A DNA stretch of 64,000 nt from an uncultured Acidobacteriota bacterium (lineage in GTDB: Bacteria; Acidobacteriota; Thermoanaerobaculia; Multivoradales; UBA5704), in the NCBI GenBank assembly GCA_963752235.1, contig CAVVXL010000011.1, positions 128,599-192,598 on the forward strand. The letters run 5' to 3'. The notes under the pieces were generated by a model. It was not told the DNA's origin. It saw nothing but the letters and a program-made list of their open reading frames with translations, and searched no databases. Both the position numbers and the translations under genes were made by a program. Positions 6,249-32,261 of the stretch are shown piece by piece. How positions within the stretch are numbered: the stretch's first letter is position 1; each line of letters starts with the position of its first letter.

Positions 6249-7201
6249 GTGGCGCCCAGTACCGCTCCGGCGGACGCCGTCGCGCCCCGCGCGGCAAGGG
6301 TCGTGGCCGCGAGGCGCACGAAGGCAATCCACAGCAGATCCGCCCCCAGCAGATGGACGACCTGGAGCCACACCGGCGCCAGGAGGAGCACGTTGATGCC
6401 TCCCAGCGCCATCTGGAGGCCGACGAGCCCCGCCGTCCAGACGGCGAAGCGCCGCGGCGCCCCGGCGAGCGGCCCCTGCATCACCGTGATCGCCAGATAG
6501 AGCGCGAGGAGACCGGCGGCGACGGCGATGCCGGGATGGAAGAGGCGCAGGCGGATCAGCAGGTGCGCCGTCGGGGAGAGGTCTGCCCGGAGGGCCGCCG
6601 CCAGCGACCGCGAAGGGAACAGGGTGTCTCCCAGCGCCGCCGTGGCGCCGCTCACCCCGGAGAGGAGCAGGGCGACGAGCGCCACGGCGAAGCCGGCCCC
6701 GGTCGCCCCCTGCCCGCGCAGGCGGAACGGCGCGCCGCCGCTCGCGAAGTGGGCGGTCAGGGTGAGCGCCGCCAGCAGCAGGAAGGTGTTGACCAGGTGC
6801 GTCGCCCCGAACATCGCGCGCGCCATCGAAGGGTTGTCCGCCACCAGCCGGAACAGCACCAGAGCCGCCCCCACCGCCGCCTCCCCCACCATGAAGGCCA
6901 TCGCCCAAACCGCCGCCGCGCGGGTTGCATGGCCGCGGGGAAAGGCACGGAATGCCCACACCAGGAGCCCCACGACCATGAGGAGAGCGATGCCGCTGGT
7001 CAGCCGGTGTGAGAACTCGATGACCGTCGCGATCCTGGGAGCCTGCGGCAGCACCATCCCGTTGCAGAGAGGCCAGTGGCTCCCGCACCCCGCCCCCGAC
7101 CCCGTAGCCCGCACGATCGATCCCCAGAGCACCACCAGGACGTTGACGGCGAGGGTCAGCCAGGCGTAGCGGGGGAAGGCGCGGGGGGAGGAGGGGTGCA
7201 T
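6224..7201 (-). CDS. ctaA: heme A synthase (COX15/CtaA family)
   Basis: GSIVRATGSGAGCGSHWPLCNG, multiple TM helices, conserved His residues. Confidence 0.8.
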   Translation of the reverse strand: MHPSSPRAFPRYAWLTLAVNVLVVLWGSIVRATGSGAGCGSHWPLCNGMVLPQAPRIATVIEFSHRLTSGIALLMVVGLLVWAFRAFPRGHATRAAAVWAMAFMVGEAAVGAALVLFRLVADNPSMARAMFGATHLVNTFLLLAALTLTAHFASGGAPFRLRGQGATGAGFAVALVALLLSGVSGATAALGDTLFPSRSLAAALRADLSPTAHLLIRLRLFHPGIAVAAGLLALYLAITVMQGPLAGAPRRFAVWTAGLVGLQMALGGINVLLLAPVWLQVVHLLGADLLWIAFVRLAATTLAARGATASAGAVLGATEAYRAGR

Positions 7202-7266
7202 GGGGGGATGATAGCGCCTTCGAGGGGGTGGCCTTCTCGAGGTTGGGGATGATCGAGATGGTGTTG

Positions 7267-7481
7267 CCTTCGAGAGACGTCCCGCCGTCCCCGTGGCCTG
7301 CGAAGGGTGTCGTTATGGGCTGGGAACGTCTCTACGGGACGGTTGCAGCACATGGGACCGATGCCGCGTTTTCGGGCAAATCGGAATCGCCGGGTTCGCG
7401 ACGACGGTCCCGTAGAGACGCTCCCAGCGCATAACGAGAACCTCGGCAGGCCACGGGGACGGCGGGACGTCTCTTCGCAGG
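7267..7481. repeat. ~215-bp nested imperfect palindrome (two ~77-nt arms, 61-nt centre)
   Basis: Arm 7267-7343 is the reverse complement of 7405-7481, by eye about 85-90% matched. An AGAGACGT/ACGTCTCT module occurs four times in alternating orientation. Confidence 0.8.
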
Positions 7482-19274: not shown

Positions 19275-21005
19275 ATGGCCCCGATGAAGAGATCCGCGAC
19301 CGCCCTGCTGCTCGCCCTCCTCCTGCCGCCGGCGGCCGGCGCCGCCTCCGTGCCGGCGCCGGCCGGTACCGGGGGCGCGGTCGCGGCCGCCGACCCGCGG
19401 GCCGTGGAGACCGGCCTCGCGATCCTGCGCGCCGGCGGCAACGCGGTGGATGCCGCGGTGGCGACCGCGCTGGCTCTCGCGGTGGTCTATCCGGAGGCGG
19501 GGAACCTCGGCGGCGGCGGCTTCGCCGTGGTGCGCATGGGAGGGGACTTCGCGGCGTTCGATTTCCGCGAGACGGCGCCGTCTGCCGCGCGGCACGACAT
19601 GTACCTCGACGAGCAGGGAAAGCCGCTCGAGAACGCCTCGCTGGTCGGTCCCCTCGCCGCCGGGGTGCCCGGCTCCCCGGCCGGCCTCTACGCGCTGCAC
19701 CAGCGCTACGGCCGTCTCCCCTGGGCGCGGGTGGTCGCCCCGGCGCGGAGCCTGGCGGCCGACGGTTTCCGGGTCGACCGCCATCTCCACACCCTGCTCG
19801 GCCTGGCGGAGACCCGCAAGCTCCTCGGCCGCTTCCCCGAGAGCGCCGGCGTCTGGCTCCCCGGCGGCGAGCCGCCGGCGACCGGCAGCCTGCTCCGCCT
19901 CCCCGACCTCGCCGCGACCCTCGGCCGCTACGCGGAGCAGGGGCCGCAGGCGATCACCGCGGGGCCGGTCGCCGCCGCCGTCGAACGGGTGTCGAAGCAG
20001 CACGGGGGAGTCCTCACCGCCGCCGACCTCGCCGCCTACCGGCCCGCGTGGCGGCAGCCGCTCACCTTCGAGGCCTTCGGCTGGCAGCTCGTCTCGATGC
20101 CCCTCCCCTCCTCGGGCGGGGTGATCCTCGGGCAGACCCTCGGCCTGCTCGAGCGGCTCGGCTGGGGGAAGCTCCCCCGCTTCGGCGCCGACCGCGACCA
20201 CCTGCTGGCCGAGGCGCTCCGGCTCTCGTTCGCCGACCGCTACCTGCTCGGCGACCCGGCGACCACCCGGGCGACGCCGGCCCAGCTCCTCGCCCCGGAG
20301 TGGATCGCCCGGCGGGCCGCCCAGATCGACCCGCGGCATGCCACCCCCTCCTCCCGGATCAAACCGTGGCCCGACGCCGCGGCGCCTTCGGCAGCGGGCA
20401 ATCCCGGCCGTGGCGGCAGCGAGACGACCCATCTGGCGGTGGTCGACCGCGACGGTAACCTGGTCTCGCTCACCACCACCCTCAACGACCTCTTCGGCAG
20501 CGGGCTATGGGTCCCCGGGGCGGGGTTCTTCCTCAACGACGAGATGGACGACTTCGCCACCGCGCCGGACCGGCCCAACCTGTTCGGCCTCGTCCAGGGG
20601 GAGGGGAACGCCGTGGCGCCGGGCAAGCGGATGCTCTCCTCGATGGCGCCGGTGATCGCCTGGAAGGGGGCGGAGGCCTACGCCCTCGGCGGGCGCGGCG
20701 GCTCGCGGATCCCCACCAACGTCCTCCAGGTGCTGCTCAACCTGCTGGTCGACGGCGACCCTCTCCAGGCCGCGCTCGACCGCCCGCGCCTGCACCACCA
20801 GGGGCTTCCCGACCGCCTGGAGGCCGAGCCCGACGCGCTGTCGCCCGAGACCCGCGCCGAGCTCGAACGGCGCGGCCACGCGATCGAGATCACCAGCGCC
20901 ACCGCCAAGGTCCACGCCGTTCAGCTCCTCCCAGGGGGCCGGATGGCGGCGGCCTCCGACCCCCGCGGCACGGGGGCTGGAGGCGTGGTCGAGCCGGAGC
21001 GGTAG
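19275..21005 (+). CDS. ggt: gamma-glutamyltranspeptidase
   Basis: Signal peptide, AGGNAVDAAVA, GNLGGGGF, and the autoprocessing site GGSETTHLAVVDRDGN. Confidence 0.9.
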   Translation: MAPMKRSATALLLALLLPPAAGAASVPAPAGTGGAVAAADPRAVETGLAILRAGGNAVDAAVATALALAVVYPEAGNLGGGGFAVVRMGGDFAAFDFRETAPSAARHDMYLDEQGKPLENASLVGPLAAGVPGSPAGLYALHQRYGRLPWARVVAPARSLAADGFRVDRHLHTLLGLAETRKLLGRFPESAGVWLPGGEPPATGSLLRLPDLAATLGRYAEQGPQAITAGPVAAAVERVSKQHGGVLTAADLAAYRPAWRQPLTFEAFGWQLVSMPLPSSGGVILGQTLGLLERLGWGKLPRFGADRDHLLAEALRLSFADRYLLGDPATTRATPAQLLAPEWIARRAAQIDPRHATPSSRIKPWPDAAAPSAAGNPGRGGSETTHLAVVDRDGNLVSLTTTLNDLFGSGLWVPGAGFFLNDEMDDFATAPDRPNLFGLVQGEGNAVAPGKRMLSSMAPVIAWKGAEAYALGGRGGSRIPTNVLQVLLNLLVDGDPLQAALDRPRLHHQGLPDRLEAEPDALSPETRAELERRGHAIEITSATAKVHAVQLLPGGRMAAASDPRGTGAGGVVEPER

Positions 21006-21071: not shown

Positions 21072-22256
21072 ATGTTCAGCCTGCGGAGCTCCACCCCAGT
21101 CGTCCTCAAGGTAACCCTCGCCGTGGCGGCGATCACGGTCACCGTCACCGCCGCCGCCGCCCAACAGCCCCCGCAGTTCTCCGAGCAGCTCACCGTCCGC
21201 GAGCGGCCGATCCTGGTCAGCCTGCCCGGCAACCTGGCGAACGCACGTCTCCAGTCCGGCGACTTCCAGGTGCTGGTCGACGGCCAGCCGCGGGAGGTGA
21301 CGCGGGCCGAGCCGCTCTCCGCCCCCGGCGGGGCGCCGTGGACGATCGTGGTCTACGTCGACGAGGTGCTGGCGAGCCCCGCCACCCTCTTCGCCTCGGA
21401 GGTGGCGCTGGCCGGCCATGCCCGGGAGCTCTCCCGGCTGGGGAGTGTCGAGGTGGTGACCGCGGCCGGCCCGGCTCCCCGGATCGTGCTCCCCGCGACT
21501 CTCGAGGCGCGGGCCGTCGAGGGGAAGCTCGCGAGCCTCGGCTCGGCGGCGCGGATCGAGCGCGACCGCTCGAGCGGAAAAAAGCGCGCTGCACCCGCCG
21601 CGGACCAGGTCGGCCGGCAGGTCGACGCGCTCCTCGCCTTCCTGGCCGCCCACCCCGCGAGCGGACCGCGCCTCCTCTTCCTGATCGCCGACGGCATGGA
21701 CCTGCCGGCGGACCAGGTGGCGGTCCTCGCCAGCAAGCCGGCAATGCGGATGCCGGCAATGCCACCGCCGCGCCGGAGGCAAGCCCGGCGAGGCGACCCG
21801 GCGGTCACTTTTCGCCACGCCGCCCGCATCCTGGCGGCGCAGGGATGGACCGTCGTCCCGCTGGCGGTGCGTCCCGAGAGCCCGGGAAACCCGACCATGC
21901 CGCGCACCAACCTCGAGCTCTTCCGCGAGTCGGCAAACCCATCGGGGCATGCCAACGGCCCGCCGCCCGACCTCCCTCCGCACGCGCGCAAGACGACCCC
22001 GCTCTCCTATTCCGGGGTGATCGACCTGGCGAGCGAGCCGCGCATGGCGATCCTCCACACTCTCGCCGAGGCCACGGCGGGCACCGTGGTGGGCTTCGAG
22101 GTCCAGCTCGCAGCCCTGCTCGCGGAGCTGCCGCACCGCTGGACGATCTGGATCACGGTGCCTGAGACGAAAGAGGGCGCCGGGGACCTGCACACGCTGA
22201 CGGTGAAGCTGCCCGGCCGGCAGACCGACGCGCGGGCGCCGGCGTGGGTGCTCTAG
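21072..22256 (+). CDS. secreted VWFA-related (TIGR03436-like) protein
   Basis: Signal peptide, then F-x-E-x-V...DF-V-VDGQPREV, a pattern resembling the acidobacterial VWFA-related domain. Assigned from memory. Confidence 0.5.
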   Translation: MFSLRSSTPVVLKVTLAVAAITVTVTAAAAQQPPQFSEQLTVRERPILVSLPGNLANARLQSGDFQVLVDGQPREVTRAEPLSAPGGAPWTIVVYVDEVLASPATLFASEVALAGHARELSRLGSVEVVTAAGPAPRIVLPATLEARAVEGKLASLGSAARIERDRSSGKKRAAPAADQVGRQVDALLAFLAAHPASGPRLLFLIADGMDLPADQVAVLASKPAMRMPAMPPPRRRQARRGDPAVTFRHAARILAAQGWTVVPLAVRPESPGNPTMPRTNLELFRESANPSGHANGPPPDLPPHARKTTPLSYSGVIDLASEPRMAILHTLAEATAGTVVGFEVQLAALLAELPHRWTIWITVPETKEGAGDLHTLTVKLPGRQTDARAPAWVL

Positions 22257-22268
22257 AACGGCGCCCTC

Positions 22269-25200
22269 CTATCCGGCCGCGCGCAGCTCCTCGGCCGCAT
22301 GATCGAGGACCATGCGCACGGTCTCTCCCAGGGTCTGCGCGGAGAACGGCTTCTGCAGCGAGACGGGCGCCTCCGGCCCGCCGTCGGAGAGTAGCTCCTC
22401 GTTGTAACCCGAGATGAAGACCACCCGCGTCATCGGGCGCTCGGCGCGCAGCCTCCGGGCGAGCTCCGATCCCTTCATCTCCGGCATGGTGACGTCGGTG
22501 AGCAGCAGCTGGATCGAGCCGCGGTGGAGGCGCGAGATGACCAGCGCCTCCTCGCCCGACCCCGCCTGGAGCACCCGATACCCGCGGCTGACCAGGATCT
22601 GGTGCAGCACGGCGCGCACCTCCTCCTCGTCCTCGACCAGCAGGATCGTCTCCGACCCGCGGTCCGAGGCGCTGGCCGGCACCCCGCCGCGGGCCCCTTC
22701 GCTCTCCTGGGTGACCGGCAGATAGACCGAGAAGGTGGCCCCCTCCCCCGGCGCGCTGTTGACGAAGATCTGGCCGCCGCTCTGGCGCACGATGCCGTAG
22801 GCGGTCGACAGGCCGAGCCCCGTCCCCTCCCCCTTGGTGCTGAAGAACGGCTCGAAGACGCGCCCTTGCGTGACCGTGTCCATGCCGACGCCGGTGTCGG
22901 TCACCGTCAGCAGGACGTAGGAGCCCGGCAGGACGTCCGCGTGGGGGGCCGCCGGACCGTCCGCACCGTCGGCGACAATCTCGAGCGGCACGGTACGCAG
23001 GTTGAGGCGGCCGCCGGTCGGCATCGCGTGGCGGGCGTTGACGGCGAGATTGACGATCACCTGCTCGAGCTGCCCCGGGTCGATCTTGACCTTGCCGAGC
23101 TCGGGGTGGAGGTTGGTGGCCAGGTGGATGTCCTCGCCGAGCAGCCGCTGGAGCATCTTCTCGAGCCCCGAGACCACCCCGTTGAGGTTCATCACCCGGG
23201 TCTCCATCGGCTGCCGGCGGGCGAAGGCGAGGAGCTGCTTGGTGAGCGCCGCCGCGCGCTGCCCCGCCTCCTTGATGCCGGTCAGGTTGCGGGTGAGGAA
23301 GGCGTCCTCCTCGTAGCGCTCGAGCAGCAGGTCGCTGTAGCCGAAGATGGCGAGCAGGCAGTTGTTGAAGTCGTGGGCGACGCCGGCCGAGAGGCGGCCG
23401 ATCGCCTCCATCTTCTGCGAATGGAGGAGCTGGCGCTGGAGCGTCTTGTTCTCGGCCTCGTCGCGCTTGCGCTGCGCGATGTCGCGGATGGCGACCACCG
23501 AGACCTCCTCGCCCTGGAAGAGGTAGCGCTTGCCGGCGATCTCGAGGTCCACCGTCGAGCCGTCGCTCTTGAAGCCGACGCTCTCGCGGGGGACGCCCGC
23601 GAGGTCGACCTCGTCGGCGACCAGGTCGGAGAGCCGGCGGCCGAGGATCTCGTCCGGGTCGCGGCCGAAGATGGCGAGCAGCGCGTGGTTGACCTCGAGC
23701 ACCACGCCGTTGCGGACGATGGCGATCCCTTCGAGGGTGGCCTCGAAGAGGGTGCGGAAGCGCTCCTCGCTGCGCCGGATCTCCTCCTCGGCGGCCTTGC
23801 GCTGGGCGATCTCCTGCTGCGCCTTGTCATAGAGGCGAACGTTCTCGGCCATCGGGGCGATCTGGTTGGCGACGGTCGACAGCAGGTGGATGTCGCTCGC
23901 CGGGAAAAAATCGTCCGGGTCGCGCCGGCCGATCAGCCAGACGCCGACGGTCTGCGCCTGCACGATGAGCGGGATCACCAGCCGCACCCAGGAGAGCGTG
24001 GGATCGGCGGGGCCCTGCGGCAGGTAGCGGCCGCTCTGCGCGAGCAGGGCCTGCAGCGCCTCGCGCGCCGGCTCCGGCCCGCCGCCCGGCACCGCCTGCT
24101 CGTAGAGGGTCTCCCGGCGCCCCTCCGCGAAGAGATAGAGCGCGGACTGGCGGATCAGCAGGGTGGGCAGGATCTCCTCGGCGACCACCCGCCCGAGGAC
24201 CTCGCGGTCGAAGGCGGTGGGAATCCGCTCCGAGACGATGCCGATCACCTCCTCCGCCGTGTGCTTGATGCCGAAGACGTAGCGGTCGACCAGCGCCTGG
24301 AAGCGGTCGCGCAGCAGCGGCACCGCCGCCATGTAGGCGAGGGAGACCGCGAGCAGCGTCGCCAGGAAGTCGCCGGTGATCTGTTTCCAGTGACTGCAGA
24401 TGGCGAAGAAAACGATCGTGTACGACGAGAACAGGATCGCCGAGAAGGTGTAGATGCCGAGGAAGCGGTTGGCCCGCAGCTCGAGGGCGCCGAGGCGATG
24501 CTTGTAGATGGCATAGAGGTAGCTCATCGGCAGGATCGGGATCGACGTCGCCGAGATGCCGAGCATGAAGGGGTAGAAATTGCGGAAGTCCTGGGCAACG
24601 TGGCGGAACCAGGCGAGCAGCACCCCGTGGAAGACCACGAAGGGGACCAGCCCGAGGGTCACGCCGAACAGCATGATGCGCACCGCCACCTTGGTGGCCG
24701 GGTCGACCGGCAGGAAGAGCCGGACGAGGAGCAGCATCAGGGAGAGCAGGACGCCCGCCAGCGCATACCAGACGAACGAGTATTCGAGCTTCTGGAGCAG
24801 CAGGAAGAAATCGAGAACGGACAGCGTGAGCGCGACGCCGTAGAAGAAGACCTGCCCCACCCGCTGCACCCGCTTGCCGAGCAGATCGCTGGGCAGGATG
24901 GTGTGCAGGTGCAGCGAGAGCGGCAGGGAGAACCAGATCACGACGTGGAACAGGAAGGCGGCGCCCGCGGTGCGGGCCGCGAACCCCGACGAGATCCAGA
25001 GAGCGGTCACGTAGCTGAACAGGATCAGAACCAGCCAGCGTTCGTCGCGGGGGCGCAGGAAGATGATGACGACCGTCCCCATCAGCCAGAAGACGAGGGG
25101 CGAGAACATGTCGTAGAGGAGCTGCGAGATCTCGACACGCATCCCGCGGAGGCGGATGTCGCGTTCGAACGTCCGGCCGTCGCGGATGAAACGGATCGGG

Positions 25201-25502
25201 GCCGTCCCGTGCTTGCCGAACAGCCCGGGAACCGACAGATGGCGATCGTGGACGAAGTTCTGGAAATCGACCCCGCGGATCGAGATCACCTGATCGCCCA
25301 CCGTGAGGCAGCCCCCCGGCGGCCCGACGCACGGATAGGCCGAGACGACCTTCCAGTCGGTCGAGCTCAGCGTAAAGCCGAGATCGGGAAAGGCAGCGAC
25401 GTACGAATAGTAGACGCAGGGGAGGAGGACGAGCAGCGAGACGAGGACCAGCAGGAGGTCCAGCGCCTTCCAGGAGGAGGAGGAGGAGTGTCGGGTATCC
25501 AT
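22269..25502 (-). CDS. polytopic hybrid sensor histidine kinase: TM1, PDZ-like domain, ~9 TM, GAF, PAS, HisKA, HATPase, REC
   Basis: VGDQVISIRGVDF...IRFIRDGRTFERDIRL (PDZ-like). H-box AGVAHDFNN. G-boxes DTGVGM and GTGLGLS. REC: ILLVEDEEEV...LLLTDVTMPEMKG. Confidence 0.9.
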   Translation of the reverse strand: MDTRHSSSSSWKALDLLLVLVSLLVLLPCVYYSYVAAFPDLGFTLSSTDWKVVSAYPCVGPPGGCLTVGDQVISIRGVDFQNFVHDRHLSVPGLFGKHGTAPIRFIRDGRTFERDIRLRGMRVEISQLLYDMFSPLVFWLMGTVVIIFLRPRDERWLVLILFSYVTALWISSGFAARTAGAAFLFHVVIWFSLPLSLHLHTILPSDLLGKRVQRVGQVFFYGVALTLSVLDFFLLLQKLEYSFVWYALAGVLLSLMLLLVRLFLPVDPATKVAVRIMLFGVTLGLVPFVVFHGVLLAWFRHVAQDFRNFYPFMLGISATSIPILPMSYLYAIYKHRLGALELRANRFLGIYTFSAILFSSYTIVFFAICSHWKQITGDFLATLLAVSLAYMAAVPLLRDRFQALVDRYVFGIKHTAEEVIGIVSERIPTAFDREVLGRVVAEEILPTLLIRQSALYLFAEGRRETLYEQAVPGGGPEPAREALQALLAQSGRYLPQGPADPTLSWVRLVIPLIVQAQTVGVWLIGRRDPDDFFPASDIHLLSTVANQIAPMAENVRLYDKAQQEIAQRKAAEEEIRRSEERFRTLFEATLEGIAIVRNGVVLEVNHALLAIFGRDPDEILGRRLSDLVADEVDLAGVPRESVGFKSDGSTVDLEIAGKRYLFQGEEVSVVAIRDIAQRKRDEAENKTLQRQLLHSQKMEAIGRLSAGVAHDFNNCLLAIFGYSDLLLERYEEDAFLTRNLTGIKEAGQRAAALTKQLLAFARRQPMETRVMNLNGVVSGLEKMLQRLLGEDIHLATNLHPELGKVKIDPGQLEQVIVNLAVNARHAMPTGGRLNLRTVPLEIVADGADGPAAPHADVLPGSYVLLTVTDTGVGMDTVTQGRVFEPFFSTKGEGTGLGLSTAYGIVRQSGGQIFVNSAPGEGATFSVYLPVTQESEGARGGVPASASDRGSETILLVEDEEEVRAVLHQILVSRGYRVLQAGSGEEALVISRLHRGSIQLLLTDVTMPEMKGSELARRLRAERPMTRVVFISGYNEELLSDGGPEAPVSLQKPFSAQTLGETVRMVLDHAAEELRAAG

Positions 25503-25588
25503 GTCCGAAGCGATGCCGGAAGCGCCACCGGCGCTTCTTCGCCGTCCTGCACCACCGTCGTTTCCGCGCCTAAAGGTTCAAGGCGCCC

Positions 25589-25618
25589 TTTATAGCAGGC
25601 TTCACCGGCTGCGGTCCA
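25589..25618 (-). promoter_or_regulatory. promoter candidate for the kinase gene (TGGACC-N18-TATAAA on the minus strand)
   Basis: Hexamers read directly, about 90 nt upstream of the kinase start. Confidence 0.2.
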
Positions 25619-25641
25619 CTTGGGGTGGGAGCGAGGCGACC

Positions 25642-25679
25642 CGCGAGCCCCCGGTCTCTCGACCTCCGGGGGCCTCGCG
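25642..25679 (-). terminator. GC-rich hairpin ~45 nt downstream of pepA (possible attenuator/terminator before the kinase)
   Basis: CGCGAGCCCCCGG-N11-CCGGGGGCCTCGCG, one bulge, no U-tract. Confidence 0.35.
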
Positions 25680-25722
25680 GACGCCGGCGGCGACCGTCCG
25701 GCCGAATCCCGGCCTTCCGCAA

Positions 25723-25917
25723 TCAAGCGTGGGCGATTCCAATGCCCGAGCCCGTAGGATCGGCAGGATCGTTGACGGGAGGCCACTCCGACCATCCGGG
25801 CGACGCGTTCGCCAGCATCGCCTTCCTGTCGAGCTCACCCACACGGCGCAGGATCTGGAACAGGAAGCTGGTCTCATTCTTGGCCGCAAAACGGGTACCG
25901 AATTCACTCATTGACAT
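25723..25917 (-). CDS. 64-aa candidate precursor peptide pepA (MSMSEFGTRFAAKNETSFLFQILRRVGELDRKAMLANASPGWSEWPPVNDPADPTGSGIGIAHA)
   Basis: GGGAGGG sits 7 nt before the ATG. It is a paralogue of pepB (same length, shared leader, WxxWPP box) and lies between the prenyl-synthase-like gene and the kinase. Confidence 0.7.
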   Translation of the reverse strand: MSMSEFGTRFAAKNETSFLFQILRRVGELDRKAMLANASPGWSEWPPVNDPADPTGSGIGIAHA

Positions 25918-26262
25918 GATAGATCCCTCCCGGTTAAAGCTTTCAACCCATTCAAGGTTTGAGTGTCGATGGACGGAAATCCACGGGGTTTCGCGCTTCC
26001 GGGCGGGGCGCGCGCCGGCCCGCGTGCCGCCATCACCGGCCTGACGGAGCGCGAGCGCCAGGAAATTTGGCGAGCTCGGGGCGAGGAAATCGGATTCGCA
26101 GGAAGATTCTCGTTCAGCCGGGCCGGCTGGAGAAGCTTGACTGCGCTGCTCAACGTATCCCGACAGAACGTGAGCATTTCAAAAACTCCTAGAGCATCTG
26201 CGGCGGAGCGCCGGAGACGCTTGAAGTATAAGCCGCGACGAGATCCGGACTCGAACCTCGCC

Positions 26263-27216
26263 TCAGTGGAGCGCCAGCATCGAGGGATCCTCGACGCCGA
26301 CCCTTTCCAGCAATCGATACAACGGCCGCGTATGCACTTCGATCAGCTGTTCGACCGGTTCCGAATACCGCAACGGTATCCCGGCGAACACCCGCTGCAA
26401 TTCATGCGAGAGCTCGACCAGCTTGAGCGTGCAATAGCTGACCGCGCCGCTGCGGAAGAGAATCCTCTGCGCCGCGGCGAGCGCTTCCGGATCTTCGACC
26501 CGCGCGGAAAGCCGCACGAAATCCTCCTGCTCGGCGTGCCCCGCGGTCATCGCGTAAAGCAGCGGCAGGCTGTTCGACCGCCGCTGCCAGTCAGCGCGCG
26601 CCGGCGTTTCGAGCGCGTCCGTGAGGTCGTCGCTGACCTGGATGAAACGGCCGAGAGCGCGCCCCAGAAGGGCGAGCTGTCCGGCCGCCTGGGGCGCCGC
26701 GCCGCCGAGCAGCGCGCCCATGCGCAACGCCTCGCCGAACAGCGGCGGAGTCTTGCTCTCGACCACCTGCCAGTATTCCCGTTCGTTCGCCAGCTCCCGC
26801 GCGTCGAGGTGCTGCCCGTAGCAGGTGGCGATCGACATCTCAGCGAAGCTCGCCTGCACCGCCGTACGGACCGCCGCGGGCGCCTCGGCCTGCTCGAGCA
26901 GCAGGTGGCCCGCGGCCTGGAACGCCAGCCCCAGGTTCGCCGCGCGCCCCGCTCCGATCAGGTGGTAGTCGCCCAGCGGGTCCTCGTCCAACATGTCGTC
27001 CACCAGATGGATGCTGATCACCGAGCAGAGCACCGCCGCCGCCGCGGGAAGCGCCGCCTCCTCCGTGCCGCCCACCGCCAGGGAAGCGGTTACCGGGTGC
27101 TCCCAGACCGAGATCGCATCCTTGTGGGTGACCCGTTCGACCACCTCCTGCATCAAGGGCCAGGAGGCCGCCATGGGCAATTTGTTAATTCTCGATTTTA
27201 ATTCATTAAATCGCAC
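26263..27216 (-). CDS. polyprenyl-synthase-fold protein, ComQ-like candidate peptide prenyltransferase
   Basis: FARM-like IHLVDDMLDED, SARM-like IQVSDDLTD, ESKTPPLF. No GGKRxR or RRG motifs. GTG start with GAGGGAG 7 nt upstream. Confidence 0.85.
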   Translation of the reverse strand: MRFNELKSRINKLPMAASWPLMQEVVERVTHKDAISVWEHPVTASLAVGGTEEAALPAAAAVLCSVISIHLVDDMLDEDPLGDYHLIGAGRAANLGLAFQAAGHLLLEQAEAPAAVRTAVQASFAEMSIATCYGQHLDARELANEREYWQVVESKTPPLFGEALRMGALLGGAAPQAAGQLALLGRALGRFIQVSDDLTDALETPARADWQRRSNSLPLLYAMTAGHAEQEDFVRLSARVEDPEALAAAQRILFRSGAVSYCTLKLVELSHELQRVFAGIPLRYSEPVEQLIEVHTRPLYRLLERVGVEDPSMLALH

Positions 27217-27250
27217 CGCAAAAACTCCCTCTTTGCGAAATCATTTAGAA

Positions 27251-27282
27251 CGGCCCCGGAAGGAATCGCCTCCCGGGAGCCG
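27251..27282 (-). terminator. hairpin downstream of pepB (9-bp stem with a bulged A)
   Basis: CGGCCCCGG-N13-CCGGGAGCCG, read directly; 77-108 nt after the pepB stop. Confidence 0.25.
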
Positions 27283-27358
27283 GCCACTTCTTGACGATCA
27301 GCATAAAACCGCAGGACGACAAATAAGCAGATTTCATGCCGATGAGCAGTCGAACCCT

Positions 27359-27553
27359 TTAGGCTTGCATGGCGAGCGAAAGGGCGCCATCACCGGCCGG
27401 CGGCCACGCGCCCCAGTCGACCAGGATGTTGTCGGTTCCTTCCGCCAGCATGGCGCGGACATCCTCGACTAGGCTCAGATTCCGCAGCGCCTGGAAAAGA
27501 TGGCCTTCTTCACGTTTGGACGTCAGCTTCGAATAGAAATCATGGATCTGCAT
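27359..27553 (-). CDS. 64-aa candidate precursor peptide pepB (MQIHDFYSKLTSKREEGHLFQALRNLSLVEDVRAMLAEGTDNILVDWGAWPPAGDGALSLAMQA)
   Basis: Internal ATG of ORF 27359..27601, with GGGGAGAG 7 nt upstream. Paralogue of pepA. Confidence 0.7.
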   Translation of the reverse strand: MQIHDFYSKLTSKREEGHLFQALRNLSLVEDVRAMLAEGTDNILVDWGAWPPAGDGALSLAMQA

Positions 27554-27689
27554 GGCGTAGCTCTCCCCTCTTGGAGGGATGTAGGTCCCCCCGACAAACA
27601 ACGTTTATGGGTTTACTGCTTACAACTACGAAATGAGCTTGATGAGGTCGTCAGGCGGGATCAGCAGGCATCTCGGAATCTCCCCATAG

Positions 27690-27717
27690 GAAAAACTGCA
27701 AAGCAAAAACTGCAAGG
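27690..27717 (-). promoter_or_regulatory. tandem direct repeat (minus strand CCTTGCAGTTTTTG CTTTGCAGTTTTT) upstream of pepB, candidate regulator site
   Basis: Two 13-14-bp units read directly, 140-165 nt upstream of the pepB start. Confidence 0.3.
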
Positions 27718-27816
27718 ACGAAGACGCAGAGTCCGCGCGCTCGTCGTGTTCTTAGTGTACCAGAGGGTGGATAGCGGGACACTCCCCTAACACTCCCGCG
27801 CGCTGTGTCGGTAGTG

Positions 27817-29088
27817 TCAGCTCAACGGAGAGGACGGCGCGGCCCCGAGCGGCTCGAGCACGCTCGGGCGGTCGGCCTCGGAGCCCCGCTTGAGGAGCTC
27901 GGCGAGCTCGCGGCCGGGCAAGGGACGCTGGAAGAAATAGCCCTGCGCGTAGTCGATGCCGAGCAGGCGGAGCACCTCCGCGTCCTCGGCGGTCTCGACC
28001 GCCTCCATCACCGTCGCCGTGCCGGCGCGCGCCGCCATCTCCGCCGTGCTCTGGACGATGATCTGCTTGAACGGATCGTGCGCCAGCCCGCGGCAGAAGG
28101 TGCCCGAGATCTTGAGGAAGTCCGGATGGAGGTCCTGGAACAGGTTGAGGTTGCTCGACCCCTCGCCGAAATCGTCGAGCGCGATGCGGAAGCCCCGCTC
28201 GCGCAGCCGCTGCAGGGTCGACGCGAAGGCGCTGGGATTGACGATCGTCTGCTGCTCGGTGAGCTCGAGGACGATGTCTTTCTCCTGCAACCCCGCGGCG
28301 TGCACGGCGTCGCAGAGCCGCGCGGCGAACTCGGGGTTGGTCAGCGACCGCGGCTGCACGTTGAGGAACGTGGCGAGGGTGTTGCCGAGGTAGACCACCT
28401 CGGTCAGGGCGGCATGGATGCAGATCATGTCCGCCTCGAAGAGGAGCTCCTTCTGCGCCGCGTAGGCGAGGAAGACCGCGGGGCTCCCCAGCACCGAGTG
28501 GATCGGCCCGCGCGCCAGGCTCTCGACTCCGAACACCTCGAAGCGCAGGGCGGCGTCCTGCAGCTTGACGACCGGCTGCAGGACGGCGCGGATCAGGTTG
28601 GCCGCCATGAAGTCCTCGAGCAGCTCGACGTGCTGCACCTCCCCCTCTCCCTCGAGGGGAACGCCGGGGGCGAGGCAGACCGCGCGGCGGTCCAGCAGGT
28701 AGCCGCGCAGCCGCGTCAGCCCTTCGGACTTCTCGAGCACCGCGGTGACGCCGAGGACGGAGCACAGGTCGCGCACCGCCTGGTCGACGTAGCCGCTCAG
28801 CACGTAGACCGCGGTGTCGGGGAAGTTGGCGGTGACGAAGCGGACGAGGCGCATGCCGTCGAGCCCGCCGAGCTGCGAGACCGAGAGGTCGGTGATCACC
28901 ACGTCGAAGCGGAAGCACCGCAGGAGGGCCTCGGCGGCCTCGATCTCCATGCAGGTGGTCAGCTCGATACCCGGCAGCCGGAGGCAGGCAGCCAGCGTGT
29001 CGACCACGATCGACTCATCGTCGAGGATCAGGACCCGAAGCACGGCGTCAGTGTCTTTCCATCCGGAGCGAGGAACCGCGCCAGGCAT
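27817..29088 (-). CDS. response regulator with REC and EAL (c-di-GMP phosphodiesterase) domains
   Basis: REC: VLILDDES...VVITDLSVSQLGGLDG. EAL domain: VLELTEQ, ALDDFGEGSSNL, LKISGTF, MEAVETAED, AQGYFFQRP. Confidence 0.85.
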   Translation of the reverse strand: MPGAVPRSGWKDTDAVLRVLILDDESIVVDTLAACLRLPGIELTTCMEIEAAEALLRCFRFDVVITDLSVSQLGGLDGMRLVRFVTANFPDTAVYVLSGYVDQAVRDLCSVLGVTAVLEKSEGLTRLRGYLLDRRAVCLAPGVPLEGEGEVQHVELLEDFMAANLIRAVLQPVVKLQDAALRFEVFGVESLARGPIHSVLGSPAVFLAYAAQKELLFEADMICIHAALTEVVYLGNTLATFLNVQPRSLTNPEFAARLCDAVHAAGLQEKDIVLELTEQQTIVNPSAFASTLQRLRERGFRIALDDFGEGSSNLNLFQDLHPDFLKISGTFCRGLAHDPFKQIIVQSTAEMAARAGTATVMEAVETAEDAEVLRLLGIDYAQGYFFQRPLPGRELAELLKRGSEADRPSVLEPLGAAPSSPLS

Positions 29089-29154: not shown

Positions 29155-30705
29155 TCAACCGCCGCCCCCTTCCTGCTCGTCGTCCCGGCATCCCGTCTGC
29201 TTTCTCCACTCGTAGAGCTCGCCGATGTCAGTTTCCGAAACCAGGTTGTAGCATCTCAGCAGGCGCTTGGCCAGCGGGTCTCCGGGCGGACGTCCCCAGA
29301 CGTAGACGGCGTCGACCAGGTCCGCGTTCGGCTTGACGCGGTAGGAGCCCGGGTCGAGCGCCACGTTCGGGGCGTCGGGGAAAGTGACCGCGCGGCGGAA
29401 GCGCACCGGGAAGAAGTCGAACTTCCCCTCGTAGTTGTCCCAGTCGATCAGCCCCTTCTCGAGGGCCGTCCAGGAGATCGCGTGGGAGAGCACGTCGGTG
29501 GGGCCGGTGTGCGCGAAGTTGAGCGCCAGGGCGCGGGTGTCCGGCTTGACCGGCGCGAGACCGGCCAGATAGCGCTCGACCTCGCCGCCGAGCTCGCGGT
29601 AGCGCTCGGTCAGGTAGACGACGTTCAGCAGGGCCACCAGGGCCAGCGCCAGGGCGGCGATCGTCTCGCGCCGCCGCGCCTCCCCCGCCCCCACCCCCGG
29701 CGAGGACCGCAGCGACAGCCAGGGGAGCAGGACGAGGAAGGGATAGAGGCTGAGGCGGTTCTTGATCAGCCAGCCGCCGGCCATCCCGTCCGGGCTGACG
29801 AAGTAGACCCCGGCGAGCAGCAGGGCGAGGAGCAGAAAGGCGTTCTCGGCGCCGCGGTGCCGGGCCCGCCACACGGTGGCGGCGAGCAACGCCAGGAAGA
29901 GCGCGGCGAGGGCGATCCCCAGCCAGCGCTGGACGTCGCCGAGGGTGAACAGCACCTGGAGCCCGGCGAAGAATCCCACGAGCTGGCCGGCCGACCAGGC
30001 GGTCGGGTGGCTCTCGCCCCCCTGATGGGTGAGGAACCAGAGCGGCAGCACGATCTGCGGCAGCAGGATCGGGACGTGCCGGAGGTGCCGCCGCCAGCTC
30101 TGCCGCCTGAGGGTCGCGAGCCAGAGCACCGCGATCGCGAGCAGGGCGAGGGCGAGCGACAGGATGTGCGAGGCGTAGCAGAGCCAGAGCAGCAGGTTGA
30201 TCCCCACCGCGAAGCGCCACCCCGGGCGCTCGCGGTGCCGCCACCAGAAGCCGAGCGCGAAGAGGAACCAGGCGACGCTGAGCGAGAAGTTGTAAAAGCC
30301 GTACTGGAAGAGCTGGTGATAGGCGAACGGGAAGGCCAGGAAGGCCGGCCAGCGCTCCTCCGGCCGCACCGAGCCGGCGAGGTACCAGGCGCCGGCCAGG
30401 AAAGTGAGCACGTAGCCGCTGACGAAGAGCTTTTCGGCCACGGCCGGCGGCACGGCGGTCATCAGCAGCGCCATGCCGGCGTGGCCGATCCAGTTGGGAT
30501 AGGGCTTGCCGTTCACCTCGTAGTAGCGGGCGAAGAGCGGGTAGTGCCGGGTGTCGGCGTGGTGCAGCAGGATCCAGGCGTTGTAGGTGTGACAGGGGCC
30601 GTCCGTGGTCGGCACGTGGCGCACCACCCAGAAAGGCAGCACGTAGAGCACGGCCAGCGCGAAGAACAGGAGGCGCAGCCGGCGGGGGGAGAGCGCGAGC
30701 GTCAT
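29155..30705 (-). CDS. polytopic membrane protein of unknown function, paralogue 2
   Basis: C-terminal 516 aa of ORF 29155..33012, starting MTLALSPRRL. Shares the DGPCHTYNAWIL and PYPNWIGH motifs with 30702..32261. ATGA overlap with paralogue 1. Confidence 0.75.
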   Translation of the reverse strand: MTLALSPRRLRLLFFALAVLYVLPFWVVRHVPTTDGPCHTYNAWILLHHADTRHYPLFARYYEVNGKPYPNWIGHAGMALLMTAVPPAVAEKLFVSGYVLTFLAGAWYLAGSVRPEERWPAFLAFPFAYHQLFQYGFYNFSLSVAWFLFALGFWWRHRERPGWRFAVGINLLLWLCYASHILSLALALLAIAVLWLATLRRQSWRRHLRHVPILLPQIVLPLWFLTHQGGESHPTAWSAGQLVGFFAGLQVLFTLGDVQRWLGIALAALFLALLAATVWRARHRGAENAFLLLALLLAGVYFVSPDGMAGGWLIKNRLSLYPFLVLLPWLSLRSSPGVGAGEARRRETIAALALALVALLNVVYLTERYRELGGEVERYLAGLAPVKPDTRALALNFAHTGPTDVLSHAISWTALEKGLIDWDNYEGKFDFFPVRFRRAVTFPDAPNVALDPGSYRVKPNADLVDAVYVWGRPPGDPLAKRLLRCYNLVSETDIGELYEWRKQTGCRDDEQEGGGG

Positions 30706-32261
30706 GGGCTCGGCCGCGCCCCCGCGCGTTCGTTCTCCATCCGCTCCCACAGCACGCCGCCGCCGGTGTCGGAGAGGGGCCGGTAGAAGTTGCCCAGCCG
30801 GATGCCGAGCGAATGGCCCGGCGGCATCTGCCAGGTGTAGACGTAGTCCGCGCGGCGCTTCCACTGCCACATGCGCAGCTGCCCCGGGTGGGCCTCGATG
30901 TCGCCGATCGGCGGCTTCGACACGCCGGCGCGGAACTCGACCGGGAAGAAGTCGAAGGTCGCCTCGTAGTTGTCCCAGTCGACCAGCCCGCGCTCGAGGG
31001 CGCGGTAGCTCATGGCGTGGCCGAGGATGTCCACCTCGATCCCCCGCCCCGTGTGCTGGAAAAGGAGCGGCAGGACCCGGCTGCCGGGACGGACCGCGTC
31101 GAGCCCGGCGAGGTAGCCCGCCATCTCGCCGCTCAAGGTCCGGTACCAGCGGGCCACGTAGACGAGGTTGAAGAGCGCCACCAGGAAGAGGACCGCGACG
31201 CCGGCCCGGCGGCCCCGTGCGCCGAAGCCGGGCGCGAGCCAGGGGATCAGCAGCAGGTAAGGGTAGAGGCAGAGCCGGTTCTTCAGCATCGAGCCGCCGG
31301 ACATCCCCTCGGGGCTGACGAAGTAGAGCACCGCGAAGAGGGCGGCGAGGAGGAGGAAGGCGCGCTCCCCGTGTGTCGTCCCGCGCGGCTGGCGCCACCC
31401 CTCCCGCCGCAGGGTGAGGAGGAGGAGGGCGAGGAAGGCGAGCGCCATCCCCCAGGCCAGCCAGCGCTGGGGGCCGCCGAAGGCCGACATCGCCCCGATG
31501 CCGAAGAAGTAGGTCAGGAGCTTCCCGAGCGGCCAGTAGGCGGCGACGGTGGCGCCCCCCTCCCGCGAGAAATACCAGGCCGGCAGCACGATCTGCGGCG
31601 CCAGCACGGCGACGTGCGCCAGGTGGCGGCGCCAGGAGACCAGGCCGTCGTCGAGCACCGTGGCGAGCCAGAGCACCGCGATGGCGAGCAGGGCGAGGGC
31701 GAAGGAGAGGATGTGCGAGAAGTAGCAGAGCCAGAGCAGCAGGTTGATCCCCACCGCGTAGCCGGGCGAGAGGGGGCGCTCGCGGTGCCGCCACCAGCAG
31801 CCGACGATGAAGGGGAAGAGGGCGAGGCTGACCGCGAAGTTGTAGAACCCGAACTGGAACAGGAAGTTGAAGACGAAGGGGAAGGCGAGGAAGGCGAGCC
31901 AGCGGTCCCCCGATCGTACCGAGCCCACCAGGTACCACATTCCCGCCAGGAAGGTCAGCACGTAGCCGGTCGCCAGCAGCTTCTCCGCGACGAGAGGCGG
32001 CACCACGAACATCAGGAGCGCCATCACCCCGTGCCCGATCCAGTTCGGGTAGGGGGCGGCGTTGACCTGGTAATACTGCTGGAAGAGGGGGTACTGGGCG
32101 GGATTCGCGGACTGGCGGAGGATCCACGCGTTGTAGGTGTGGCACGGCCCGTCCACCGTCGGCAGGTAGTGGACGATCCAGAACGGCACGGCGTAGAGGC
32201 CGGCCAGCGTGAAGTAGAGCGCGCGGATCCAGCGCCCGTTGAGATCTGTCGTCGGTTCCAT
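30702..32261 (-). CDS. polytopic membrane protein of unknown function, paralogue 1
   Basis: 519-aa ORF with ~10 hydrophobic segments plus a ~150-aa C-terminal soluble part; collinear with paralogue 2. Confidence 0.75.
   Translation of the reverse strand: MEPTTDLNGRWIRALYFTLAGLYAVPFWIVHYLPTVDGPCHTYNAWILRQSANPAQYPLFQQYYQVNAAPYPNWIGHGVMALLMFVVPPLVAEKLLATGYVLTFLAGMWYLVGSVRSGDRWLAFLAFPFVFNFLFQFGFYNFAVSLALFPFIVGCWWRHRERPLSPGYAVGINLLLWLCYFSHILSFALALLAIAVLWLATVLDDGLVSWRRHLAHVAVLAPQIVLPAWYFSREGGATVAAYWPLGKLLTYFFGIGAMSAFGGPQRWLAWGMALAFLALLLLTLRREGWRQPRGTTHGERAFLLLAALFAVLYFVSPEGMSGGSMLKNRLCLYPYLLLIPWLAPGFGARGRRAGVAVLFLVALFNLVYVARWYRTLSGEMAGYLAGLDAVRPGSRVLPLLFQHTGRGIEVDILGHAMSYRALERGLVDWDNYEATFDFFPVEFRAGVSKPPIGDIEAHPGQLRMWQWKRRADYVYTWQMPPGHSLGIRLGNFYRPLSDTGGGVLWERMENERAGARPSP

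Follow-up and report, generated by a model that had tools for sequence, protein, structure and literature searches.

A conserved five-gene locus in Acidobacteriota with two candidate prenyl-peptide precursors, a PDZ-bearing sensor kinase and a cyclic di-GMP phosphodiesterase

We analysed a 64,000-nucleotide stretch of DNA (hereafter the window) from an uncultured soil Acidobacteriota bacterium of the class Thermoanaerobaculia (assembly GCA_963752235.1, contig CAVVXL010000011.1, positions 128,599 to 192,598), and in it a group of five co-directional minus-strand genes that may form a peptide-signalling module. In the direction of transcription, these genes encode a response regulator made of a receiver domain and an EAL domain (REC-EAL), a small peptide (pepB), a relative of the trans-type isoprenyl diphosphate synthases (hereafter trans-IDS), a second small peptide (pepA) and a hybrid sensor histidine kinase (Table 1). 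The group had been delimited in a sequence-only reading of the same DNA, and the open reading frame (ORF) list and Pfam bear out both the extent and the domain content that it gave for the five genes. Strong Shine–Dalgarno sites precede the two peptide genes and the enzyme gene (GGGGAG 9 nt 5' of the pepB ATG, GGGAGG 8 nt 5' of pepA and AGGGAG before the enzyme gene).

Table 1. Features of the five-gene locus, in window coordinates
Feature	Position	Strand	Product or extent	Basis
REC-EAL response regulator gene	27817..29088	-	423 aa	Pfam Response_reg E=8e-12 and EAL E=1.6e-46
pepB precursor gene	27359..27553	-	64 aa	ORF list; ATG within a longer TTG ORF
pepB core WGAWPP, predicted modification site W50 (second Trp)	27398..27415	-		conservation of the second Trp
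Enzyme gene, trans-IDS relative	26263..27216	-	317 aa, GTG start	PF00348 E=1.3e-16
pepA precursor gene	25723..25917	-	64 aa	ORF list; paralogue of pepB
pepA core motif WSEWPP	25777..25794	-		same basis as the pepB core
Hybrid sensor histidine kinase gene	22269..25502	-	1077 aa	Pfam; AlphaFold model of residues 1-440
PDZ domain, first extracytoplasmic loop of the kinase	25137..25391	-	~residues 38-122	profile and Foldseek; LGF carboxylate-binding-loop motif

The same arrangement is found in many related genomes. Scanning one genome per species for enzyme loci gave 66 loci, nearly all of them in metagenome-assembled genomes (MAGs) of Thermoanaerobaculia or Holophagales, along with two in Anaerolineales. 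When the five proteins of the window were used as tblastn queries, nearly all sufficiently long loci proved to have REC-EAL, peptide, enzyme, peptide and kinase in this order and on one strand. The arrangement recurs in about 60 species-level genomes of Thermoanaerobaculia and Holophagales; a repetition on this scale excludes chance. The departures from this order are few: both peptide genes lie upstream of the enzyme gene in L053 and L064, and in four loci (L048, L049, L051 and L054) the peptide–enzyme unit is duplicated ahead of a single kinase gene (peptide-enzyme-peptide-enzyme-kinase), with duplicated enzyme copies that are 51–57% identical to the window enzyme. The latter arrangement suggests that each enzyme works with its own cognate precursor. 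Clustering of the ORFs that flank 60 loci returned no other gene family present in more than 29 of them, and no exporter, protease, immunity, transporter or tailoring gene is conserved around these loci. Since no further flanking family is widely shared, the five genes constitute the unit in this phylum. The recurrent flanking families, namely a gamma-glutamyltranspeptidase (GGT), a 394-aa hypothetical protein and two membrane proteins, were considered as parts of the module and rejected, as their occurrence follows phylogenetic closeness and not the module.

The five genes do not diverge at the same pace. The median identity to the window proteins is highest for REC-EAL, the most conserved gene of the module (85%, taken over 58 loci), and decreases through the kinase core (80%), the GAF-PAS region (77%) and the enzyme (61%) to the transmembrane (TM) sensor (52%), pepB (48%) and pepA (41%). 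Within the kinase, the TM sensor is thus the fastest-diverging part and the kinase-REC part the slowest.

Some irregularities of individual loci are worth recording. In L001, whose contig is shared with L004, a DDE_3/HTH transposase gene (6274-7359) sits on the opposite strand between REC-EAL and pepB, the remaining module being intact. In several loci (L065, 7001-7947; L066, 7001-7935; and the kinase genes of L009, L016, L022 and L027), tblastn recovers the enzyme or the kinase in two or three pieces; in these long-read MAGs the split frames reflect either assembly frameshift errors or pseudogenized modules.

The two small peptides are clear paralogues, with a common leader (xEFxxxFxxKxExxxLFQxLR) and a W-x-x-W-P-P core. 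pepB consists of a leader (residues 1 to ~36), the core W47-G-A-W50-P-P and a 14-residue tail ending in Ala, while pepA carries the core W42-S-E-W45-P-P and a tail that also ends in Ala. Neither peptide matched Pfam or NCBIfam at E<=0.1, the ComX family PF05952 included. A hidden Markov model (HMM) was built from the first 34 residues only, so that no Trp was required, and run on every locus and on the window, with all of their six-frame segments included. This leader HMM gave 120 hits overall, exactly two of which lie in the window, these being pepA and pepB (the latter at 1e-18). A W-x-x-W motif is found downstream of the leader in 112 of these 120 leader-defined ORFs, and two further hits resemble decayed copies. 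In L055, L056, L058 and L060 the motif reads [ML]GIW, i.e. the first Trp is lost and the second one kept, which identifies the second Trp as the invariant residue of the core. Most loci (55) contain two peptides by this criterion, one contains three and seven contain a single one, the four loci just mentioned being among the latter. With tblastn, pepB orthologues were found at the equivalent position in 51 loci and pepA orthologues between enzyme and kinase in 38 loci, more being recovered by the leader HMM. The existence of two paralogous precursors, as proposed in the sequence-only reading, is therefore supported by the common leader and core, the Shine–Dalgarno sites and the orthologues. 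The WxxWPP motif that it had proposed stands in part: the WxxW core, and in particular its second Trp, is conserved, while the WPP extension is limited to the closest clade.

The peptides evolve as genuine coding sequences, with their reading frame maintained. Their leader, whose consensus reads M-S-I-H-D-F-H-S-K-L-x-S-x-x-E-E-x-x-L-F-x-A-L-R-x-L-S, is under purifying selection: the median ratio of non-synonymous to synonymous divergence (dN/dS) is 0.43, and dN is lower than dS in 95% of 3201 pairs. The pepB leader and its L003 counterpart, for instance, differ by one non-synonymous and five synonymous changes (dN 0.0125, dS 0.24). It had been foreseen that the small ORFs might be absent or poorly conserved next to enzyme homologues elsewhere; they are instead conserved and selected for, and small Trp-containing ORFs adjoin the enzyme homologues in essentially all related genomes. 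The tails past the motif vary in sequence and in length (3–24 residues), and the C-terminal residue is Ala in 75 of 107 peptides and Val in a further 12. Several downstream peptides carry repeated WxxW cassettes (L031 8332, L038 8386, L044 5055, L039 8347 and L041 7868), as in GNWGIWMED...AGWGVWQEG; such two-cassette peptides may be multi-core precursors giving two products each. In L014, both paralogues (6685 and 8295) have one extra residue in the core, which reads DWGPAWPG and GWGPEWPA (WxxxW), so that the Trp spacing has changed jointly in two presumed substrates of one enzyme. In combination, a conserved leader, a hypervariable core flank, a fixed acceptor residue, and multi-core and copy-number variants are the usual signature of enzyme substrates.

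The 317-aa enzyme belongs to a discrete and sizeable family, for which an exhaustive search of 1.8 billion representatives returned 169 clusters at E<1e-30, or 402 clusters when the threshold was E<1e-10. Its homologues number in the hundreds, are 315–317 aa long and 62–93% identical, come from Thermoanaerobaculia or Acidobacteria where named, and are publicly annotated as geranylgeranyl pyrophosphate synthase. The polyprenyl-synthase fold assigned from the sequence alone is correct: besides the PF00348 match, the AlphaFold model (pLDDT 96) has the trans-IDS fold, with Foldseek TM-scores of 0.72–0.79 to geranylgeranyl diphosphate (GGPP), octaprenyl diphosphate and solanesyl diphosphate synthases at ~20% identity. 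An alignment of 75 family members, down to 29% identity, shows that the first (D73-D-M-L-D77) and second (D196-D-L-T-D200) Asp-rich motifs are both kept. Residues D74, N94, Y148, W149, K155, Q193, D197 and D200 are invariant, and D73, D77, D196 (>=90%), D209 and W210 nearly so; among them, N94, Y148, W149, D209 and W210 are specific to the family. With the two DDxxD motifs and the KT-motif Lys all in place, the machinery that binds and ionizes the allylic diphosphate is retained. By contrast, the motifs that bind isopentenyl diphosphate (IPP) are missing. When aligned with 3ipi and 5jfq by HMMER, the family offers nothing basic opposite their GGKRxRP, which precedes helix 2 (the window enzyme has DAISVWEHP there, and the family profile has non-basic or unaligned positions), and the RRG located after the first DDxxD motif is deleted or replaced by GDY. 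The loss of GKRxR and RRG makes chain elongation unlikely. Furthermore, no curated NCBIfam synthase cut-off was reached, the best score being 83 bits versus 450 and all others being at most 42 bits. The enzyme hence does not look like a bona fide farnesyl diphosphate (FPP), GGPP or long-chain synthase, whereas grouping with these was what the sequence-only reading had named as counting against it.

The family is related to enzymes that prenylate indole rings, although not by close kinship. In hhalign, the family alignment and that of ComQ, the isoprenyl transferase of the Bacillus ComQXPA system, matched with a probability of 97.6% (E=4e-12, 20% identity; the B. subtilis ComQ sequence used is 100% identical to the database entry), and the family profile matches the indole farnesyltransferase Ord1 (9v4g) with E=1.6e-15. 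The family HMM, however, gives 79 bits to canonical GGPP and long-chain synthases versus 60 bits to Ord1 and 28–52 bits to ComQ, so that the idea of an enzyme closer to ComQ or Ord1 than to canonical synthases was rejected, and the enzyme is not placed in the ComQ family. In the reverse test, some family members reach 44 bits with the ComQ HMM, more than any synthase in the PDB (37 bits). From these comparisons we conclude that the family is a separate branch of the superfamily, or one that split off very early, and that it shares with ComQ the loss of the IPP site. The Gln that precedes the second motif (Q193-x-x-D196) is kept as in peptide Trp prenyltransferases; it does not discriminate, as canonical synthases share it. 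The enzyme is most likely a peptide tryptophan prenyltransferase; prenyl transfer, the target residue and the chain length are what we infer from its sequence and from the analogy with known systems.

Variants of this enzyme exist in which two IDS-like domains are found in tandem (P0224 and P0232, 641 and 509 aa, and locus L077), the N-terminal copy being devoid of the first DDxxD motif. In these proteins the enzyme may form a pseudo-dimer within a single chain. In L077, a 63-aa ORF ending in ...YPWPGPIWG follows the tandem-domain gene.

The kinase consists, in this order, of a first TM helix, a periplasmic PDZ domain, nine further TM helices, and GAF, PAS, HisKA, HATPase_c and REC domains. 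Pfam recognizes the GAF, PAS, HisKA (PF00512), HATPase_c and Response_reg domains, and the PDZ domain was missed in a Pfam scan of the full-length protein. A profile of residues 36-124 matched only PDZ domains in the PDB (best E=2.3e-8), and weak Pfam PDZ matches occur in 8 of 14 members. Likewise, the AlphaFold model of residues 1-440 (pLDDT 74.6) shows the first TM helix, a beta-rich domain spanning residues 40-120 and nine more helices. Among the top Foldseek matches, nearly every one is a PDZ domain from a periplasmic protease (DegS, DegP, CtpA, CtpB and RseP), with a probability of ~1 and, for the whole 440-aa query, E>0.1. Note that a word-based search for homologues of the sensor region returned 22 mostly partial proteins, which were used for the structure model only. 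Profile and predicted fold together thus confirm the PDZ-like module that had been read from the sequence, just as the ten predicted helices and Pfam confirm a hybrid kinase with about ten TM segments and GAF, PAS and REC domains.

Two features of the sensor suggest how it might be used. First, the positively charged RPRDERW loop that follows the second TM helix places the beta-rich PDZ domain outside the cytoplasm. Second, the family consensus PxLGFxL retains the LGF carboxylate-binding loop. PDZ domains bind free C-termini; Ala and Val ends are typical PDZ-type C-termini, and the Foldseek listing includes a CtpB structure (4c2g) with a peptide ending in ...VPA. Given that the peptides mostly end in Ala or Val, recognition of their C-terminus by the PDZ domain is the mode that we propose. 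The nine-helix part of the sensor is covered by no Pfam model. Invariant in the TM sensor are the RPRDERW motif itself (residues 150-156, window ~25036-25055, in a cytoplasmic loop), an H-L-H motif within a helix (residues 198-200, window ~24903-24911), and W190, Y221, R261 and P287.

The regulator aligns over its full length to the PvrR-type RR-EAL model, with 90 bits versus a cut-off of 580. The translation itself, and not a residue alignment, served to identify its EAL motifs (ESL, N, ELTE, DDFG, K, EAVE and QGY) and, in the receiver domain, the residues DD...D. Pfam agrees with the earlier view that the output is an EAL phosphodiesterase instead of a DNA-binding domain.

The association of enzyme, peptide and kinase extends beyond this group of genomes. 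We examined eleven distant loci, with enzymes 31–45% identical to that of the window and GC contents of 0.33–0.72, two Anaerolineales genomes being included. All eleven contain an adjacent small ORF with a C-terminal Trp motif, in which a Trp lies 0–5 residues from the C-terminus: ...DWPLWTRF, ...AWIPWPG, ...DWPVWTHQSI, ...PWILW, ...YWVGWGF, ...MWWQWM, ...GWTPWVA, ...GWTWW, ...SSWGWH, ...TTWGWW and ...WPGPIWG. The same PDZ-polytopic kinase adjoins the enzyme gene in 7 of the 11, with 27–36% identity in the sensor region. The expectation that a polytopic kinase would be conserved along with the enzyme therefore holds both in the ~60 acidobacterial loci and at this distance, and the sequences indicate that the enzyme–peptide–kinase triad is older than the phylum. 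The regulator behaves differently: tblastn found no REC-EAL in any of the 11 loci, many of which are on short contigs, so that the cyclic di-GMP (c-di-GMP) output looks specific to the acidobacterial clade. One further protein from the survey, P0187 (655 aa), consists of residues 1-246 of an enzyme homologue followed by the N-terminus of a PDZ-polytopic kinase; it is probably a frameshifted gene call, and shows that the enzyme and kinase genes are adjacent in another lineage too.

A mechanism that would account for these features runs as follows. pepB and pepA would be translated as 64-aa precursors, whose helical ~35-residue leader would be the handle recognized by the enzyme. With Mg2+, the two Asp-rich motifs of the enzyme would hold an allylic prenyl diphosphate, whether geranyl, farnesyl or geranylgeranyl, and, the IPP site being gone, the prenyl cation would go to the indole of the invariant second Trp of WxxW and not to IPP. 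The leader would then be removed, and the lipopeptide would reach the periplasm or the exterior by housekeeping functions. There, the periplasmic PDZ domain would bind the free peptide C-terminus through its LGF loop, with the prenylated Trp inserting among the nine TM helices. Kinase activity would set the phosphorylation of REC-EAL and thereby c-di-GMP hydrolysis, likely in a biofilm- or motility-type decision. We lean, by a little, towards this chain as a whole, in which Trp-prenylated peptides would be read by a PDZ-polytopic kinase with c-di-GMP hydrolysis as output. The prenylation step taken by itself is more likely than the whole, and cell-to-cell use and phosphotransfer to REC-EAL are less likely. 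Processing and export, the pairing of ligand and receptor, phosphotransfer and cell-to-cell (quorum) use are the steps that we infer.

Several points weigh against this chain. On the enzyme side, the HMM score is nearer to canonical GGPP and long-chain synthases than to ComQ, and the second Asp-rich motif is intact here while it is degenerate in ComQ, in Ord1 and in StheQ (see below); catalysis may hence proceed in another way here, and the acceptor may be something other than a peptide. Prenyl transfer and its target residue are predictions. Any export would have to cross two membranes, and the module comes with no linked exporter, leader peptidase or signal sequence. On the signalling side, the kinase, being a hybrid, already contains a REC domain, and no Hpt gene lies close by, so that the adjacency of the genes is the one pointer to phosphotransfer towards REC-EAL, which is itself restricted to the acidobacterial clade. 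Two of the distant loci, L071 and L075, have no adjacent kinase. All the related genomes are MAGs. As to the identity gradient across the module, it is consistent with the model in that it resembles the comQ-comX-comP' polymorphism, in which signal, enzyme and sensor vary and the output is conserved. As rapid drift is in any case expected of short peptides and TM segments, and the flanking genes are themselves 73–92% identical (GGT), we rejected it as evidence of pherotype-like diversifying selection; it possibly reflects this drift and nothing else.

Some of these points would fit other explanations equally well. The strongest of them, which we nonetheless consider rather unlikely, is that the peptides are a prenylated natural product of the RiPP type (peptides made by the ribosome and modified after translation), such as a membrane-active antimicrobial or surfactant, and that the kinase and REC-EAL regulate its production or respond to envelope stress instead of acting as receptor and output. 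Enzyme–peptide pairs without a kinase, as in L071 and L075, would be natural under this explanation, as would multi-core precursors, which are typical of natural-product RiPPs; antimicrobial peptides modified by PalQ, a related enzyme, have been described in a review, and DegS and RseP use their PDZ domains to detect envelope stress via unrelated protein C-termini. However, the PDZ-polytopic sensor accompanies the enzyme across phyla, and it is hard to explain why it should do so if it sensed something unrelated. Moreover, no immunity, transporter or additional tailoring genes are conserved, and the closest kinase-linked precedents, ComQXP and PalQXP, are signalling or putative signalling systems.

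An explanation that we regard as improbable is that the module is cell-autonomous: the prenylated peptide would stay in the inner membrane of its producer as a lipid-anchored co-sensor or ligand of the kinase, and would report, for example, the prenyl-diphosphate pool or the envelope state to c-di-GMP instead of cell density. The lack of an exporter or signal peptide, the barrier that a diderm envelope opposes to a secreted lipopeptide, and nine kinase helices that could bind a lipid laterally all speak in its favour. The RPRDERW loop speaks against it, since with the PDZ domain on the periplasmic side the ligand must at least cross the inner membrane, and variable tails and sensor domains fit lineage specificity better than a housekeeping readout.

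Far less credible still is the explanation that the small proteins serve a heteromeric prenyl-diphosphate synthase as small subunits or regulators, in the manner of the two-component hexaprenyl and heptaprenyl synthases. Heteromeric trans-IDS with a non-catalytic small partner do exist (3aqb and 9kp1 are among the structural matches), and both Asp-rich motifs are intact; yet the IPP motifs are missing, the known small subunits measure 140–250 aa, and variable-length tails and copy-number variation are unlike a structural subunit, just as the repeated WxxW cassettes suit a substrate and not a subunit. Finally, the alternative that the sequence-only reading itself had raised, an ordinary FPP, GGPP or long-chain synthase next to chance small ORFs, has on its side the public annotation of the homologues and the GGPP and octaprenyl synthases as best sequence and fold matches, but is contradicted, to the point of being hardly tenable, by motif-bearing peptides conserved under purifying selection in more than 60 genomes and across phyla and by an enzyme that has lost the IPP motifs and stays far below all curated synthase cut-offs.

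As for the surroundings of the module, the locally AT-rich patch noted in the sequence-only reading is real and only modest: the GC content is 0.60–0.65 over 24.5–28 kb versus ~0.75 in the flanks, and the dip lies largely within intergenic and transmembrane-coding DNA. An Rfam scan of the whole window gave zero matches, and a scan of 22.0–29.4 kb for sigma-70 promoters and terminators gave nothing exceeding the shuffled expectation. Directly upstream of the REC-EAL gene (29155-32261, minus strand) lie two tandem paralogous polytopic membrane proteins of 516 and 519 aa, whose genes overlap start to stop at 30702-30705; they have no Pfam match, share the N-terminal motif VPTxDGPCHTYNAWIL and are found upstream in just 14 of the closest loci, and the pair is probably outside the module. 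Convergent to the kinase gene are the gene for the GGT (19275-21005, plus strand) and that for the 394-aa protein (21072-22256, plus strand), which has no Pfam match. The GGT occupies the same position in 33 related loci; we read this as synteny through relatedness, although a role in periplasmic peptide processing is conceivable.

Peptide pheromones are textbook Gram-positive biology, and quorum sensing in Gram-negative bacteria is seen as based on small molecules. To our knowledge, essentially nothing is known of signalling in Acidobacteriota, which are among the most abundant soil phyla, and the way in which ComP recognizes ComX is still unresolved. If the proposed chain holds, ribosomal lipopeptide signalling would extend to diderm bacteria, and a peptide signal would be linked directly to c-di-GMP. 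The precursors would constitute a new RiPP family, defined by a WxxW core and a conserved leader and now hidden in hundreds of clusters as 'geranylgeranyl pyrophosphate synthase' next to uncalled or hypothetical small ORFs. The PDZ domain and TM bundle would provide the first candidate receptor mechanism for a prenyl-peptide, and the enzymes would widen the toolkit for site-selective lipidation of peptides at an internal Trp. A more far-reaching version, which we put forward tentatively and hold to be less probable than the chain itself, is that the locus represents the first ComX-type prenyl-peptide cell–cell signalling in diderms. Its family would then be ancient and spread over several phyla (Acidobacteriota, Chloroflexota and at least some low-GC lineages), and a trans-IDS-derived enzyme would lipidate the second Trp of WxxW in it, with the PDZ domain holding the C-terminus and the nine helices the prenyl group; this family would have been wired to c-di-GMP in Thermoanaerobaculia, and ComQXPA would be one branch derived from a far broader principle of signalling.

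How does the locus compare with systems already described? There are precedents for superfamily enzymes that prenylate a Trp of an adjacent precursor, namely ComQ, PalQ (with the kinase PalP), the P domain of ChrPC, and StheQ; the first three are those listed as known trans-IDS-like peptide Trp prenyltransferases in a 2026 review, Ord1 acting on free indole. PalQ/PalX/PalP of Paenibacillus alvei is likewise a cluster, of three genes, in which a trans-IDS-like Trp prenyltransferase accompanies a precursor and a histidine kinase; it was found by genome mining and has an enzyme that was earlier mis-annotated. It differs in its Firmicute host, in the NHLP-type leader and strictly C-terminal Trp of PalX, and in that PalQ forms a separate cluster in similarity networks. 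The ChrPC P domain and Ord1 have the same fold, the first Asp-rich motif and the conserved Gln upstream of the second motif. Neither is associated with a two-component system, ChrPC being fused to a terpene cyclase and Ord1 acting in a small-molecule pathway. For the output, the closest parallels are RocS1/RocR and PvrS/PvrR, in which a hybrid kinase also acts through a REC-EAL regulator; these have different sensor domains and no linked peptide or prenyltransferase, and our regulator stays well below the PvrR-type cut-off.

In Sphaerobacter thermophilus (Chloroflexota), the 69-aa StheX receives a farnesyl group on Trp68 from StheQ, which is encoded next to it, as shown by liquid chromatography–tandem mass spectrometry in a preprint of 31 August 2026, which claims that ComQ-like systems extend beyond Firmicutes and mentions no kinase or regulator (bioRxiv 10.64898/2026.08.29.745113). 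The likeness lies in an isoprenyl pyrophosphate synthase-fold enzyme outside Firmicutes with an adjacent precursor that has two Trp near its C-terminus. StheQ moreover has a Q-x-x-[N/D]-D-x-x-D arrangement, one helical turn apart, like Q193..D196 here (compared by its published description). By contrast, StheX is encoded downstream of the enzyme and ends in WW-x, and the pseudo-second motif of StheQ begins with Asn215. The 2014 census placed comQXPA loci in Firmicutes only and listed criteria for such loci (Dogsa et al. 2014, PMC4008528), in agreement with the sequence-only reading that they are essentially confined to Bacillota; the preprint partly overtakes that claim and, by taking ComQ-like prenylation outside Firmicutes, partly reduces the priority of the acidobacterial locus. 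Our literature search found no report of an Acidobacteriota version, of WxxW precursors or of a PDZ-bearing receptor.

The closest comparison remains ComQXPA itself. Both systems combine, on one strand, a single-domain PF00348 enzyme of ~300 aa (here 317), a 50-70-aa Trp-containing precursor, a polytopic kinase and a regulator; neither has a dedicated exporter or protease linked to it, and in both the signal, enzyme and sensor are more variable than the output. The enzymes are homologous, as the hhalign result indicates, and GKRxR and RRG are lost in both. The differences concern every component: the second Asp-rich motif, degenerate in ComQ (QIxxDY), is intact here (DDLTD), at 20% identity between the enzymes; ComX (PF05952) is 52-73 aa long with its Trp 5-10 residues from the C-terminus, whereas the two paralogous WxxW precursors are 64 aa long, do not match PF05952 and have their Trp 14-22 residues away; ComP has HisKA_3 (PF07730) and HATPase_c domains, whereas the present kinase is a HisKA (PF00512) hybrid with PDZ, GAF, PAS and REC domains; and ComA combines REC with a GerE DNA-binding domain, whereas the present regulator combines it with EAL. 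In addition, the regulator gene comes first here, and the host is a diderm acidobacterium. The view of the locus as ComQXPA-like can therefore be kept for its logic, as regards the parts, their order on the strand and their co-conservation, and not for membership, because the ComX family, HisKA_3, GerE and the pseudo-second motif are all lacking: on sequence grounds, the locus is an analogue of ComQXPA that would work on the same logic, and not a member of it.

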